Of a stretch of DNA of 7,477 bases, positions 1,678 through 6,219 are shown one piece after another; position 1 is the first letter of the stretch, and the number at the start of each line of letters is the position of its first letter. The position numbers and the translations under genes are program-made. The stretch lies in IMG/VR virus record IMGVR_UViG_2663762992_000008. The stretch is one strand, 5' to 3'. Origin of the DNA: a virus. Taxonomy: Duplodnaviria; Heunggongvirae; Uroviricota; Caudoviricetes. The notes under the pieces are model-generated. The model was not told where the DNA came from. It was given only the letters and a program-made list of their open reading frames with translations, and ran no database searches.

Positions 1678-4029
1678 TTGGCCAACGATATTATTACCCA
1701 GCTTCAGGCGCGTAATGAGACGTTGACGCAGGCAATAGCCCGTTACGGCTCACTCAACGCCAGAACTTTGTTAGCTCTCTCTTCTCAGCAAGCGACAGTA
1801 ATCAAACTAACGCAGCAACTTGCCGATTCTGCTCTCCGCCTGGAGGAAAATAGCCGCAGCCGCGCTAATCTGATGGAGAAAACCCACACATTTGCCGGGC
1901 AATTTAGCAAAGTATTCAATGTTGAAGCCCCCGATTGGAAGTTGCCGTATGAGTTCCAGGACAACATGGTCAATATGGCGACCAAAGGTGGGATGAATGA
2001 TACAACCCGCGAGACGCTCAGCCTTAATCTGCGCGACTGGAGCATGGATTTTAACCAGCATCAGACCACCTTACAGAACGCAGCCCAAACGCTGATCGAA
2101 GGCAATTTGTCGTCGATACAGGATCTCAACCGTTATATGCCGGAGATCGCCAAAGCTGCCACCGCCACGCGCGAAAGTGCTGAAACATGGGCGAATGCCG
2201 CGCTCGCAACCCATGATCGACTGAATATTGCGCCAGAAAATTTCCACGCCGCGCAAAACATGATGTACGGCATTAGCAAAAGCGGTGGGCCTGCCGTTGC
2301 CGAGCAAACGCAGTGGATAGACAAATTTGCAGGTAAAACCGGCGCTCAGGGTCTGGAAGGTATGACTGAACTGACTGCCGCCATGCAGATCGCCATGAAA
2401 AACGGGGCCAGCGCCAGTGCGGCGGCTGAGAATTTTGACCACTTTCTGCAAACCACCTTTTCGAAAAAAACCGATAGCTGGTTCGCCAGCCAGGGCGTCG
2501 ATTTGCAAGGCTCTCTGCTTGAACATCAGCAAAACGGTATGAGTGTTAGCGAAGCCATGACTCATATCGTGCAAATGCAGCTTGAGAAGATGAATCCGGC
2601 GATCCTCGACACCTTCAAACGCACTATGCAGATTGAAGATTTATCTGCTCGCAGCACTGCGCTGCAATCGATGGTGGCGCAATTTAATCTGGGCGAAATG
2701 TTCGGCGATGCGCAAACGGTGGAATTCCTGGCACCTATGCTGGCGAATATGGAGGAATATCGCCAGTTAAAAGCCTCTGCCATGCAAACTACCAGCAAGA
2801 ATCTGATTAACGCTGACTTTTCTGCGCAAATGGCCTCGCCCATTGAACAGACTAAAGCGTTACAACTGGCGTTAAATGATTTATGGCTCAGCATTGGCTT
2901 GCAGCTTATGCCGGCGATTGGCGAGCTGGCACAAAGCCTTGCGCCGGTTATTCGCCAGTTCAGTGCCTGGCTACGCGAACATCCGGCGCTGGTGCAAAAC
3001 ATTGCGAAAATCGTCGGGGCGATTTGGCTGTTTAACGGTGCGCTTAATGTTTTAAAGCTGGGCGCGAACCTCATCGCCTCGCCGTTTATTCGTCTGGTCG
3101 ATATCTTCCTGAAAGTCAGGGCAAGTCTGGCCCTCGGCGGCGCGGCAAGTAAAGTGCTATCGGCGGTTAAGTCATTGGGTGGCGGCGCAAAATGGCTAAC
3201 GCAACTGCTTGGTCGTGGCCTGATCGGAGCATTGAAACTGTTTGGTCGAACCGTTCTCTCGCTAGGCCGGGTGTTATTGATGAATCCCATTGGTCTGGTC
3301 ATCACTGCGATTGCGGGCGCGGCTTATCTGATTTATCGCAACTGGGAACCTATCTCCAGGTTCTTTTCGACCATCTGGCAACGTATCACCACGGCCTTTG
3401 ACGGCGGCATTGCAGGAATTTGTCGGTTGATTCTCGACTGGTCACCGCTGGAGTTGTTCTATAGCGCCTTTTCCGATGTGATGAATTGGTTTGGTGTTGA
3501 GATGCCTGCGAGTTTTAGCGAGTTCGGCAGCAATATACTGGGTAGCCTGGCCGACGGCATAATGAATGCTTTCCCCGCACTGAAAGGCATTATTGATCAG
3601 GTCAAAAACGCCATGCCAGACTGGCTAAAAGCCACAATGGGTATCAGCACAGAAGCATCGGCTGCGGCTGTTACAGGCACGGCTAATACCGCATCAGTCT
3701 CCCCCGCGACCGTTGTTCCAGGCGTTGCCGGTGCGATTTTAACGCTGCCGGTGGGCAAACAACTCGCGCCATCCGGCAAAACGGCTACGCCGTCATCGGC
3801 AAAACCCGCGTCGGCCTCTTTACCTGGTAAATCCGTAACCAAACCGGCGACGCTACCCTCCCGTTCCCCGGGAAAAGTCCAGGTGAATTTTTCGCCACAA
3901 ATTACCGTGCAGGGTAACGGACAAAACACCACTAAAGAGATTCAGAACGTGTTGACGATGAGTAAACGCGAACTGGAAAGAATGATTAACGATGTAATGG
4001 CGCAGCAGCAGCGCCGGGGGTATGCCTGA
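1678..4029 (+). CDS. Tail tape measure protein (P2 gpT-like)
   Basis: 783-aa ORF directly downstream of the chaperone. N-terminal half is helical and Ala/Gln-rich; there is a central run of hydrophobic, Gly/Ala/Leu-rich segments (about aa 400-560) and a C-terminal Ala/Ser/Thr/Pro-rich low-complexity stretch. Apparent TTG start at 1678, since no ATG or GTG occurs in frame after the upstream stop at 1639-1641. Stop overlaps the next start (TGATG at 4027-4031). Confidence 0.8.
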   Translation: MANDIITQLQARNETLTQAIARYGSLNARTLLALSSQQATVIKLTQQLADSALRLEENSRSRANLMEKTHTFAGQFSKVFNVEAPDWKLPYEFQDNMVNMATKGGMNDTTRETLSLNLRDWSMDFNQHQTTLQNAAQTLIEGNLSSIQDLNRYMPEIAKAATATRESAETWANAALATHDRLNIAPENFHAAQNMMYGISKSGGPAVAEQTQWIDKFAGKTGAQGLEGMTELTAAMQIAMKNGASASAAAENFDHFLQTTFSKKTDSWFASQGVDLQGSLLEHQQNGMSVSEAMTHIVQMQLEKMNPAILDTFKRTMQIEDLSARSTALQSMVAQFNLGEMFGDAQTVEFLAPMLANMEEYRQLKASAMQTTSKNLINADFSAQMASPIEQTKALQLALNDLWLSIGLQLMPAIGELAQSLAPVIRQFSAWLREHPALVQNIAKIVGAIWLFNGALNVLKLGANLIASPFIRLVDIFLKVRASLALGGAASKVLSAVKSLGGGAKWLTQLLGRGLIGALKLFGRTVLSLGRVLLMNPIGLVITAIAGAAYLIYRNWEPISRFFSTIWQRITTAFDGGIAGICRLILDWSPLELFYSAFSDVMNWFGVEMPASFSEFGSNILGSLADGIMNAFPALKGIIDQVKNAMPDWLKATMGISTEASAAAVTGTANTASVSPATVVPGVAGAILTLPVGKQLAPSGKTATPSSAKPASASLPGKSVTKPATLPSRSPGKVQVNFSPQITVQGNGQNTTKEIQNVLTMSKRELERMINDVMAQQQRRGYA

Positions 4030-4982
4030 TGTATGCCGTTTTAGGAGAGATTGAATTTAAAGTTGTCACATTCTGGGACGGCTTTAAAAGCACAATGGGC
4101 GTGGATTACGCCACACATGCCCGTATAGAAGGCAAACCCGGCGTGCAGTTTATTGGCGATAAGCTGGATATGCTGGCGCTGGAATTTTCCCTGCACAGCC
4201 AGTTTTGCCAACCCACAACAGAGCTGAATCGACTGCGTGAAGCCATGCTTGCTCACAAAGCAATGGCGCTGGTGTTTGGCAACGGAGATTATCGCGGCTG
4301 GTTTGTAATTACAGAGTTAACCGCCACTCACCAGCACACCGATCCCTGGGGCAATGTCATTGCCCAAAGCGGAACAATGTCGCTCCAGGAGTATACCGGC
4401 GATCCGAAAAACCCACTGCTGCCCCCGGCAATTACCACCCAGGAGCCTAATATCGAGGAAAAGGCGAGCGATTTTCCGAATAAGGTGGAGTCCTGGTTGT
4501 ATCAGATATTGAACGCCATTGAAGAAGGTATGCGCAAAGCCAAAGAGATGCTCGATGAACTGGCGCAAACCATTGAAGATATTAAAAAAACAGTGGCAAA
4601 AGTGAAAGCACTGATTAAAGAGGCCAAAGCGTTAAAAGAAAAGTGTGAAAAGATAATTACGTCGTTGAAAAAGACTATCGACGCCATCGAAACCCTGTTT
4701 AAACAGCCAATGGATCTGCAAATGCTGGCAGGACTCCCAAAAGCGTTGTCGGCTCAGATTAAAGCTTTACTGGGTAACATGCCAGGTATACGGGACTGCG
4801 CCAATGACGCCAGTACGCTGGTTGACCATGCTCAGACACTTTTCGACGACATTGCCAGCAACATCGCCGAAGCGACGTTTGATAAAGCCGCAACGTTGGT
4901 TGATCAGGCACGAACAACGGTACAACAAACCACTCCCGCAGTGAGCCAGCTTGCTGCCGCGACCATTACGAGGAGCTGGTAA
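4029..4982 (+). CDS. gpU-like tail protein (tail tube terminator family) fused to a C-terminal extension of about 180 aa predicted to be alpha-helical/coiled-coil
   Basis: The N-terminal ~125 aa (hydrophobic start, ..GVQFIGDKLDMLALEFSLH..) resemble P2 gpU as I recall it, and the gene is in the gpU position between tape measure and gpX. The ORF continues without a stop to 317 aa through a Lys/Glu/Ala-rich heptad-like sequence (..MRKAKEMLDELAQTIEDIKKTVAKVKALIKEAKALKEKCEKIITSLKK..). TAATG overlap with the next gene. Confidence 0.65.
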   Translation: MYAVLGEIEFKVVTFWDGFKSTMGVDYATHARIEGKPGVQFIGDKLDMLALEFSLHSQFCQPTTELNRLREAMLAHKAMALVFGNGDYRGWFVITELTATHQHTDPWGNVIAQSGTMSLQEYTGDPKNPLLPPAITTQEPNIEEKASDFPNKVESWLYQILNAIEEGMRKAKEMLDELAQTIEDIKKTVAKVKALIKEAKALKEKCEKIITSLKKTIDAIETLFKQPMDLQMLAGLPKALSAQIKALLGNMPGIRDCANDASTLVDHAQTLFDDIASNIAEATFDKAATLVDQARTTVQQTTPAVSQLAAATITRSW

Positions 4983-5191
4983 TGCGATACCTTGAACATA
5001 TCACCACCGATGGCGAACGCTGGGATAACCTGGCCTGGCATTACTACGGCGATGCACTGGCTTATGAACGCATTATCGCAGCCAATCCACATGTCGCCAT
5101 TTATCCGGTACTGCCTTCCGGTATTCAGCTCATCATTCCGGTCATTTCCGTCAATAAAACCTTATCGGAGATCCCACCATGGCTGAGATAA
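4982..5191 (+). CDS. gpX-like small tail protein with LysM-type fold
   Basis: 69-aa ORF. The pattern W-x-x-(L/I)-A-x-x-YYGD...IIAANP...LPSG..L.IP is similar to P2 gpX as I recall it. Located between the gpU-like and gpD-like genes, as in phiCTX/R-pyocin-type clusters. Overlaps the next ORF by 13 nt. Confidence 0.75.
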   Translation: MRYLEHITTDGERWDNLAWHYYGDALAYERIIAANPHVAIYPVLPSGIQLIIPVISVNKTLSEIPPWLR

Positions 5192-6219
5192 GCGTAACTG
5201 GCGGCGTCTTTGCAACACTCACGCCCATTTTTACCCTCTGGTATGGGCATAAAGATATCACTTATGACATCACGCCTTATGTCACCAGCATCAGTTACCA
5301 GGACAGTATTAAAAACGAGTCGGATACCATCGCGATTACACTGGATGACACCGATGGACGCTGGATAAAAGAGTGGTATCCCGGCAAAGGCGATACGCTG
5401 GCGCTGCATATGGGTTATCAGGGGGAAAAGCTGCTCGATTGTGGTCAGTATATTATTGATAAAATTGATATTTCATCGCCACCTTCTACGGTAAATATTG
5501 ATGGCATCGCCACTTCCGTCAATCAGGCGCTACGCACGCGTAACAGCCAGGGCTTTGAAGAGACGACGCTTTCGGCTATCGCCAGCCGTATCGCGCAAAC
5601 GCACGGTCTGAAACTGGTGGGCAAAATCGAGCCGCTCACCATCGACCGGGTAACGCAGTATGGTGAAACCGATGTTGGATTTCTCAAACGTCTGGCCAGT
5701 GAATATGGTTATGCCGTAAAAGTGACGACAAAAGAGCTGATTTTTTCACATTTACCCACGCTGCGCTGCCTGGCACCGGTAAAAACGATCGACCGCAAAG
5801 ACGTTTCGCATTTCACCTTCAAAGATACCATTAACCGTATCTACAAAAACGCCACCGTACAGCATCAAAATAGTAAGAAAAAAGAACTGGTTATCTACAC
5901 CCACGACAGCCAGCAAAAACCGTCTGCCCGTGGAGTCGGCACCAGTGCCGACACGCTAAAACTGAACAGTCGGGCGACGGACATTGGCGCAGCACAGGCA
6001 AAGGCCAACGCTGCACTCGACAGCCACAACGAATATCAGCAAACCGGAACGCTCACAATGATGGGCTGCCCGGAACTGACGGCGGGCAATAAAATTGAAC
6101 TGACCGATTTTGGCGTGCTTTCCGGTCAGTGGCTGATTGATAAATCTACTCACAGTTTTGTGCGCAGCGGCTATACCACTGAAATCGACGTGTCACGCGG
6201 GCCAGCGACCAGCCAGTAA
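5179..6219 (+). CDS. gpD-like tail/baseplate hub protein (late control gene D family)
   Basis: 346-aa ORF. Motifs ITLDDTDGRW, FEETTLSAIASRIAQTHG and DVGFLKRLASEYGYAV are co-linear with P2 gpD as I recall it. Position downstream of X is conserved. Confidence 0.8.
   Translation: MAEISVTGGVFATLTPIFTLWYGHKDITYDITPYVTSISYQDSIKNESDTIAITLDDTDGRWIKEWYPGKGDTLALHMGYQGEKLLDCGQYIIDKIDISSPPSTVNIDGIATSVNQALRTRNSQGFEETTLSAIASRIAQTHGLKLVGKIEPLTIDRVTQYGETDVGFLKRLASEYGYAVKVTTKELIFSHLPTLRCLAPVKTIDRKDVSHFTFKDTINRIYKNATVQHQNSKKKELVIYTHDSQQKPSARGVGTSADTLKLNSRATDIGAAQAKANAALDSHNEYQQTGTLTMMGCPELTAGNKIELTDFGVLSGQWLIDKSTHSFVRSGYTTEIDVSRGPATSQ

Follow-up and report, generated by a model that had tools for sequence, protein, structure and literature searches.

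The window analysed here is a whole stretch of 7,477 nucleotides of viral DNA (Caudoviricetes; IMG/VR record IMGVR_UViG_2663762992_000008) that carries part of a tail gene cluster. The order at the locus is a tape measure gene (TMP), a gene for a 317-aa protein, gpX, gpD, gpV and gpW, then gpJ and gpI, and this is colinear with gp42, gp43, gp44, gp45, gp46, gp47 and gp48 of phage Mu. The following features concern us:

1678..4029, plus strand: tape measure protein gene (Pfam PhageMin_Tail), directly upstream of the 317-aa gene
4029..4982, plus strand: long-form gpU-family gene, an open reading frame (ORF) of 317 aa
4029..4403, plus strand: tube-like (GpU) domain, residues 1-125, from Pfam PF06995, the AF2 model, Foldseek and an N-terminal profile
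4404..4484, plus strand: conserved proline-rich linker, residues about 126-152 (PKNPLLPPAITTQEPN...), from alignments and pLDDT
4485..4967, plus strand: helical bundle domain, residues about 153-313, with about 165 helical residues
4509-4733, plus strand: Lys/Glu-rich heptad stretch with a dip in GC, within the helical bundle domain
4530..4532, plus strand: internal ATG (Met168), a suggested second start that was judged non-functional from spacing, conservation and a promoter scan
4584..4590, plus strand: A7 homopolymer inside the 317-aa gene, from which frameshifts enter the gene calls of draft assemblies
4926..4979, plus strand: conserved C-terminal tail, residues about 300-317 (TPAVSQLAAATITRSW), from alignments
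4982..5191, plus strand: gpX, a LysM-type tail protein X encoded by a separate gene (Pfam Phage_tail_X, E 1.6e-23)
5179..6219, plus strand: gpD-type baseplate hub gene (Pfam Phage_GPD; PHROG 52, E 8e-133)

The 317-aa gene is translationally coupled to the tape measure gene, its ATG sharing a base with the TGA of the latter (TGATG), and its own stop codon overlaps the ATG of gpX. Just upstream of the sheath gene, the locus holds a separate Mu Gp37-family gene (Pfam PF09646, E 6e-34), the likely tail terminator. The locus as a whole is a headless, tailocin-like tail cluster, conserved and present in roughly 3.6% of the complete genomes of E. coli; A10 is one of the strains with this lysC-yjbD cluster. 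An active locus would amount to an R-type tailocin descended from the Mu/BcepMu line. The subject of the E. coli ST131 'tailocin' paper is a complete P2-like prophage (PMC9205054).

The 317-aa protein is 100% identical to E. coli RefSeq entry WP_000271438.1 ('phage tail protein'), and the DNA of the gene is a 100% match to E. coli A10. PHROG 788 ('tail protein') aligns over residues 1-317 with profile positions 1-297 of 297 (E 6.1e-129). A megablast search of the phage collection gave no match, and phage relatives emerged at the protein level only: full-length forms are found in the Bcepmuvirus-type phages phiE255, PhiKM, KP12 and Komp_PAO1_1, and conservation is end-to-end across phages of Enterobacterales, Burkholderia, Ralstonia and Pseudomonas. 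PHROG 788, WP_000271438.1, gp19 of Burkholderia phage phiE255 and 'tail protein U' of Escherichia phage PhiKM share family and architecture with the protein and are colinear with it throughout; we found no substantive difference among them, and their names are generic only. NCBIfam held no model for the protein and returned only SMC/Rad50-type coiled-coil noise far below cutoffs. A second homologue search using the alignment as query added almost no diversity. The match in Komp_PAO1_1 was considered as the R2 pyocin cluster itself and this was rejected, Komp_PAO1_1 being a complete Mu-like phage; it also carries Gam.

The earlier note on this DNA had regarded 317 aa as an unusual length for a gpU-family protein, given a typical 130-170 aa. 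The family has two length classes, and the premise fits just one of them. Among the 150 best-scoring representatives at 50% clustering, 84 were 280-319 aa and 29 were 160-199 aa long, in a ranking by family profile search that is biased towards long forms because the query profile is itself the long form. Same-length homologues, which that note had named as the finding that would count against it, were looked for and proved to be common and already annotated (288-327 aa). The 317-aa protein is an ordinary, widespread phage-tail baseplate protein.

Its N-terminal part was suggested to be gpU-like, and this is borne out by a Pfam Phage_P2_GpU (PF06995) match at residues 6-123 (E 5.9e-34; 116.7 bits against a cutoff of 27.5) that spans 119 of the 120 profile positions. 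When PDB sequences were searched with an N-terminal profile, 'Ripcord PA0626' was recovered (E 0.0045), and it was recovered by that profile only. The same search with the single protein or the full-length profile gave coiled-coil noise alone (syntaxin, viral fusion proteins, chemoreceptors and designed bundles), which we discarded.

The AF2 model comprises a tube-like domain of beta-strands, a disordered linker and a confident helical bundle; a long hairpin at residues 13-46 is of low confidence. The best full-length Foldseek match in the PDB was a chain of the Mu baseplate (9ki1_u; 348 aligned columns, E 2.6e-3, prob 0.91). The fourth-ranked match and second full-length baseplate match was chain 9rku_A1 of Agrobacterium phage 7-7-1 (355 columns), and further matches were to baseplate chains of pyocin R2 (6u5b), PVC, AFP and the Anabaena CIS. 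For these baseplate chains probabilities were 0.9-0.98 but E only 3e-3 to 0.2, with low TM-scores (0.2-0.25). The values are modest because the domains are oriented differently and the model is poor at the N-terminal hairpin. In the BFVD the best match was a 407-aa protein annotated 'DNA circulation, N-terminal' (365 columns, E 5e-6).

In the linker, P126, K127, P132, P133, A134 and P140 are invariant in alignments of 20 and 25 sequences and at least 90% conserved in an alignment of 64, and pLDDT is below 50 over residues 129-153. An equivalent flexible linker is present in Mu, Milano and pyocin (PMC11915804, PMC10811340). Beyond it, helices are predicted at residues 153-188, 192-225, 238-271, 277-299 and 302-313. 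Residues 161-235 are rich in Lys (18.7%), followed by Leu, Ala and Glu (12% each) and Ile (10.7%). The suggestion of a long helical extension with heptad periodicity was confirmed: over residues 150-235 hydrophobicity repeats every 3.5 residues in one unbroken register (z = 17.5; none of 2000 shuffles as high), followed by a 3.6-residue periodicity over residues 236-317, as amphipathic helices would give. Identity between subfamilies is about 15% in the helical domain, as opposed to 62% in the tube domain. BLASTP found no match to the helical domain in phage PhiKM, though the neighbouring genes are 50-77% identical. Past the variable helical region identity climbs again in the C-terminal tail, where S306 and R315 are invariant. 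Within the tail module it is the helical domain that evolves fastest, and this shows even between alleles of E. coli.

The DNA of this extension had been described as visibly AT-rich and as hinting at an in-frame acquired module. GC is indeed lower at 4509-4733 (0.409) than in the 317-aa gene (0.49), but the dip is not exceptional: the 225-nt window starting near 4509 ranks only 32nd lowest of 1411, and the tube gene has a GC of 0.421 overall, the lowest 225-nt windows (0.387) lying at about 490-900. Most of the dip is at codon position 2 (GC2 0.267) and therefore reflects amino-acid composition; GC3 is 0.467 in the dip and 0.566 in the rest of the gene (Fisher p = 0.15). The dip is thus due mainly to Lys/Glu/Ile/Leu codons. 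GC gives no real support to acquisition, and what speaks for it is sequence divergence, which within the tail module is far greater in the helical domain than in any other segment.

Comparison with characterized tails places the protein in a recognizable slot. Mu gp43 (N, 'DNA circularisation protein'; PDB 9ki1) is encoded, like the 317-aa protein, between the tape measure and hub genes and shares its domain order of N-terminal tube-like domain, flexible linker and wedge-contacting helical domain. Gp43 differs in being 495 aa long with eight helices and a fused LysM, as opposed to the separate gpX here, and in having an N-terminus of the Pfam DNA_circ_N rather than the GpU family; Mu gp43 corresponds to the 317-aa gene plus gpX. 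Gp25 of Agrobacterium phage Milano (the baseplate centrepiece, BCP) has nearly equal domain boundaries, with a Tube domain at 1-127 that a poorly ordered linker joins to a Helical domain (141-345) embedded between wedges. Its helices number eight, it ends in a LysM (346-396) and it is disulfide-linked to the wedge, unlike the 317-aa protein with its four or five helices and separate gpX. In the R2 pyocin, PA0626 ('Ripcord', BCP; PDB 6u5b) shares the Pfam GpU domain (E 2.4e-32), is likewise a two-domain protein (about 290 aa) and is encoded between the tape measure and hub genes of the tailocin; the gene for PA0627 (LysM 'glue') follows directly, to be compared with the separate gpX. The domain order of PA0626 is reversed, with the helical domain at 1 to about 130 and GpU at 158-285; the analogy with PA0626 is therefore one of function and location and not colinear homology. 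No significant alignment of helical parts was obtained when hhalign was used to compare the family profile with Mu gp43, PA0626 and the PA0626 family alignment. The short gpU form of P2 has 159 aa; this and other gpU proteins of about 160-190 aa have the tube-like GpU domain in common with the 317-aa protein, are likewise encoded after the tape measure gene, and lack the helical domain of about 165 residues.

The gene product is thus very probably the tube initiator (baseplate centrepiece, 'ripcord') of a contractile tail of the Mu/BcepMu type. We looked for a tube-protein-like beta domain, and found it in the GpU domain and the predicted beta fold; for a helical bundle joined to it by a flexible linker, which is present; and for a position between the tape measure and hub genes, laid out here as in Mu and the R2 pyocin. 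Domain content, gene position, family, predicted fold, wide distribution and conservation pattern were each shown for this protein itself. Mu gp43 is a hexameric tube initiator with a tube-like domain, a helix-rich wedge-binding domain and a LysM domain, and Mu gp37 is the terminator (PMC11915804). PA0626 is described second-hand in the role of 'Ripcord' (PMC10811340, PMC10996793), its helical bundle gluing the wedges and being extruded upon contraction (PMC10811340).

From Mu gp43, Milano gp25 and pyocin PA0626 we infer a hexameric ring, a wedge-gluing role and release on contraction for the 317-aa protein. Six GpU domains would form a ring on the trimeric gpD hub, predicted to continue the tube onto the hub, and would act as the seed from which the tube polymerises around the tape measure protein. 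The proline-rich linker would run outward from the ring, and the C-terminal bundle of four or five helices would wedge between adjacent gpW/gpJ/gpI wedge complexes, beside the separate LysM protein gpX, holding the baseplate as it is before firing. Triggering would make the wedges splay, free the helical domains and let the centrepiece depart with the tube. An intact helical domain in a tail-only element that packages no DNA argues for such a structural tail role.

The earlier note had instead proposed a terminator capping the head-proximal end of the tube, its coiled-coil extension a decoration at the tail terminus gained by in-frame fusion. The name 'gpU' is shared with the lambda terminator, and the helical segment is both lower in GC and the most divergent part of the protein. 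Tail terminators are exemplified by lambda gpU and P2 gpR/gpS; P2 gpU, by contrast, is a tube initiator at the hub (baseplate) end of the tube and not a terminator. It is the P2 GpU family that Pfam detects here, the family also present in the baseplate protein PA0626, whereas neither Pfam nor PHROG gave a terminator-family match. A terminator would further be expected upstream of the sheath and tube genes; the 317-aa gene follows the tape measure gene and precedes the hub gene, as does that of the Mu tube initiator gp43, and the Mu-type terminator of the Gp37 family is a different gene of the locus. The fold matches are all baseplate chains, and the GC dip has its explanation in codon position 2, with no significant difference in GC3. 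Terminator function is thus extremely improbable, and the decoration fares no better, as solved relatives bury the helical domain between baseplate wedges (PMC11915804, PMC10811340). It is also highly improbable, if marginally less so, that the long ORF is an artefact fusing a normal gpU with a downstream gene, or that it gives two products through the ATG at 4530 or slippage on the A7 run. In favour of a split are PHROG 18424 (122 aa), which matches residues 196-316 only, the truncated or frameshifted database versions P0032, P0037, P0097 and P0105, and the A7 run itself; P0037 diverges exactly at ...DIKK. Yet the full-length ORF is present, identical or nearly so, in 195 independent complete E. 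coli genomes, which disposes of the suspected missed stop or frameshift, and its conservation between host groups is end-to-end, while most of the truncated forms come from drafts or from assemblies built from reads, and the truncated forms begin to differ at indel sites. The idea that the extension is made separately fails on the internal ATG, which begins at 4530 and not at 4529: a single base separates the proposed GAAGG (4524-4528) from it, much less than a Shine-Dalgarno sequence needs, which leaves the ATG without a usable ribosome-binding site. Met168 is absent from subfamilies about 40% identical, and no promoter-like sites were found on the plus strand inside the ORF (4029..4982).

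Two further readings concern the helical domain of the tube initiator. It could additionally act as a pilot like Mu N, or as a circularisation module that binds DNA ends, and pass into the target cell together with the tube, since Mu N is reported to accompany and circularise infecting DNA (PMC11915804). Such a role would suit the occurrence of the family in transposable BcepMu-like phages, with full-length relatives in the four Bcepmuvirus-type phages, gp43 (N) as the positional counterpart and 'DNA circulation' as the annotation of the best BFVD match. We nevertheless consider it unlikely: the protein has no DNA_circ_N (PF07157) match at E ≤ 0.01, where Mu gp43 scores 91 bits, and hhalign detected no sequence similarity to gp43. 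A headless cluster, which delivers no DNA, keeps the domain intact, and the domain is acidic/Lys-rich and hypervariable with no obviously conserved DNA-binding surface. There is a slightly better, still small, chance that the hypervariable domain is more than passive wedge glue. Its presumed place at the tube tip at firing, its fast evolution and the opposite domain order in PA0626 mean that it could be a module recruited independently and open to exchange, one that might match the threshold for firing to the given fibres and wedges. It might instead have a role in the envelope of the target, such as inserting into the membrane or forming a channel, or, in phage relatives, in the handling of DNA ends.

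As a discovery the assignment of a tube initiator carries small weight; it corrects a likely misreading driven by names, between the lambda gpU terminator and the P2 gpU baseplate tube initiator. It offers a specific role for a protein that databases name only 'phage tail protein' or, wrongly, 'chemotaxis protein', a mislabelling of some relatives that stems from the helical region. Of modest value are also the fastest-evolving helical domain, the conserved headless host locus and the layout of the subfamily, which is intermediate between P2 (short gpU plus gpX) and Mu/Milano (tube, helical and LysM domains fused) and has no member with a solved structure. The 317-aa protein differs from the fused-LysM subtype of Mu gp43 and Milano gp25 in having no LysM or Tail_X match. 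Rare 364-aa fusions of centrepiece and Tail_X do occur in databases (P0060, P0074 and P0091).

We conclude that the 317-aa protein encoded at 4029-4982 on the + strand, a position that the earlier note had given correctly, is the tube initiator, or baseplate centrepiece, of a Mu/BcepMu-type tail. Overlapping codons link its gene to both neighbours (its ATG with the TGA of the tape measure gene upstream, its stop with the ATG of the gene that follows), so that the genes are translationally coupled. Phage_P2_GpU (Pfam) covers residues 6-123 with 116.7 bits (cutoff 27.5, E 5.9e-34), and the protein outside this domain is helical. Lys, Glu, Leu, Ala and Ile are abundant in residues 161-235. Over residues 150-235 hydrophobic residues recur every 3.5 residues in one unbroken register (z = 17.5, a value reached in 0 of 2,000 shuffles), confirming the helical extension with heptad-like periodicity that had been noticed from the sequence, and residues 236-317 follow a period of 3.6 residues instead. 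What had been observed of the frame was largely correct; the function read into it was mostly wrong. The genes of the window are, in order:

Sheath, C-terminus
Tube
Chaperone
Tape measure
Centrepiece (4029-4982, + strand)
gpX (LysM-type Tail_X)
gpD hub
gpV spike
gpW

In the full locus gpJ, gpI and a fibre gene come next. With these included, the gene order parallels that of Mu gp39 to gp48, the centrepiece and gpX together taking the place of gp43. By cryo-EM, Mu gp43 is a hexameric tube initiator in which a flexible loop joins the tube-like domain to a helix-rich one that extends downwards to pack on the wedges, with a LysM module in addition; the tail terminator of Mu is gp37 (PMC11915804). 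The 'baseplate centrepiece' gp25 of phage Milano consists of a Tube domain (1-127), a Helical domain (141-345) and LysM (346-396), and in pyocin R2 the centrepiece is PA0626, 'Ripcord', a protein that glues the wedges by its helical bundle and is extruded on tube movement (PMC10811340).

In an AF2 model built from 64 homologues (mean pLDDT 69.5) the N-terminal domain is beta-rich, residues 129-153 form a disordered linker, and helices are confidently predicted at 153-188, 192-225, 238-271, 277-299 and 302-313. Among PDB chains searched with Foldseek, 9ki1_u of the Mu baseplate was the best full-length match of this model (348 columns, E 2.6e-3), followed by baseplate chains of phage 7-7-1, pyocin R2, PVC, AFP and the Anabaena CIS. 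In BFVD the top match was a 407-aa 'DNA circulation, N-terminal' protein (365 columns, E 5e-6) and the second a 424-aa 'LysM domain' protein. By analogy with these systems we conclude that the helical extension would be the wedge-binding domain of the centrepiece.

The earlier note had proposed a tail terminator. Against this, the P2 GpU domain is also present in the baseplate protein PA0626, and the locus contains a distinct gene of the Mu Gp37 family directly upstream of that for the sheath (PF09646, E 6e-34). The gpU of lambda is a terminator and is unrelated to P2 gpU; the misreading probably stems from it. In PA0626 (R2 pyocin cluster, L003:4006-4878) the helical part is N-terminal and GpU C-terminal (158-285), the reverse of the arrangement in the centrepiece, and no similarity was detectable between the two helical parts. 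The reversed order and dissimilar helices may reflect independent recruitment or extreme divergence. The order in PA0626 conflicts with the wording of PMC10811340, which has the helical bundle attached at the C-terminal end of the tube domain.

The DNA of the centrepiece gene is 100% identical to Escherichia coli strain A10, and the window lies inside a cluster between lysC and yjbD:

L001:12285-27925, cluster in strain A10
L005:6229-23249, cluster in strain TCM3e1
Cluster start, in order: Mor-type late activator, holin, transglycosylase (endolysin), lipoprotein, Gp37-family terminator, gp38-like gene
Cluster remainder: full tail and baseplate set, sheath through gpI, then fibre and fibre-assembly genes

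The layout is the same in the second strain, where the centrepiece copy is about 95% identical. No head/capsid, integrase, transposase or replication genes were found in the cluster in the two strains inspected. Judged by its gene content the cluster looks like either an R-type tailocin, as a candidate of Mu/BcepMu ancestry, or a domesticated tail remnant. For phage relatives of the centrepiece a part in DNA-end handling, like that of Mu N, is conceivable, although the protein itself has no DNA_circ_N match and its helical domain is intact in this cluster without head genes. Adjoining the cluster on the opposite strand (L001:27939-29863, with the same pair in TCM3e1) are a nucleotidyltransferase-domain gene and a slipin-family gene, which may be a cargo or defence pair.

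The centrepiece gene is an ordinary member of an already known kind. Used as a probe, it was found full length in 195 of 5,426 complete E. coli genomes (in two of these the entire cluster was viewed), chromosomal in every case, and its E. coli copies are annotated 'phage tail protein'. PHROG family 788 spans the whole protein (1-317 against 1-297 of 297, E 6e-129). The length had been thought unusual; homologues of 288-327 aa, annotated and aligned over their whole length, are common, occurring in Salmonella, Enterobacter, Klebsiella, Yersinia, Pectobacterium, Brenneria, Serratia, Xenorhabdus and Photorhabdus. Sequenced phages also carry relatives, namely Klebsiella KP12 and Escherichia PhiKM (about 40% identity), Burkholderia phiE255 (33%), Ralstonia YO107_2 and Pseudomonas Komp_PAO1_1. 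When 1.8 billion cluster representatives were searched with a profile, 1,474 relatives were returned; the best 150, in a ranking that favours long forms, include 84 of 280-319 aa and 29 of 160-199 aa. Many homologues, such as P0007, P0011, P0013 and P0034 from Salmonella, are publicly named 'chemotaxis protein' or 'methyl-accepting chemotaxis protein', probably a carry-over from spurious helical-bundle similarity.

The 195 genomes and the wide conservation contradict both an artefact and a two-product reading of the long frame. Shortened or oddly long database homologues are due to frameshifts, contig ends or deletions. At least one, P0037 from a read-derived assembly, is frameshifted exactly at an A7 homopolymer inside the gene (4584-4590), and PHROG 18424 (122 aa) appears to gather C-terminal fragments of split centrepiece genes. 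Rare 364-aa proteins fuse the centrepiece to gpX, thereby recreating the Mu/Milano layout.

Conservation is high in the tube domain and proline-rich linker (the smaller alignments show no variation at P126, K127, P132, P133, A134 or P140), residues 150-290 are hypervariable and contain indels, and the final ~15 residues are conserved again (S306 and R315 invariant). Compared with a more distant subfamily, identity is 62% in the tube domain and about 15% in the helices. Neighbouring tail proteins of PhiKM are 50-77% identical and its tube domain 65%; the helical part alone gave no BLASTP match there. Within E. coli, amino-acid changes fall almost entirely in the helical domain (4449-4979): all 15 differences from the common allele P0001 are in residues 141-317 (p = 1.6e-4), and against the TCM3e1 allele (L005:14001-14954) nonsynonymous/synonymous codon differences number 11/14 in the extension, compared with 1/18 for the tube domain (p = 0.006). 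Such change would mean relaxed or diversifying selection.

Because changes concentrate in the extension, the suggestion of an in-frame acquired module gains some support from divergence; it gains none from GC. The dip that had hinted at such a module is real (0.409 at 4509-4733) but weak as evidence. It results from amino-acid composition, since the deficit is mostly at codon position 2 (GC2 0.267), and GC3 is 0.467 against 0.566 in the remainder of the gene (p = 0.15). Equally low or lower GC occurs in the tube gene (0.421) and in stretches around 490-900 (0.387). Separate production of the extension from the internal ATG at 4530 was likewise not borne out. The preceding GAAGG stops one base before this ATG and is therefore too close for a ribosome-binding site, the Met is absent from ~40% identical relatives, and no promoter-like sites were found on the + strand inside the frame; by these features the codon seems not to serve as a start.

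At the left end of the window the sheath gene remnant carries six scattered N (189, 191-192, 195, 197-198). An open frame at 1172-1577 extends, in the +1 (= -2) frame, beyond the point where the tail assembly chaperone ORF (1172-1489) stops, and its end (...SEIDALTVDDFSNWLDEASAQIKIEYDSQT) has a weak Pfam Phage_P2_GpE match under the cutoff (E 9e-4). This is probably a frameshift extension of the chaperone, unannotated in RefSeq and in a frame other than the usual -1.
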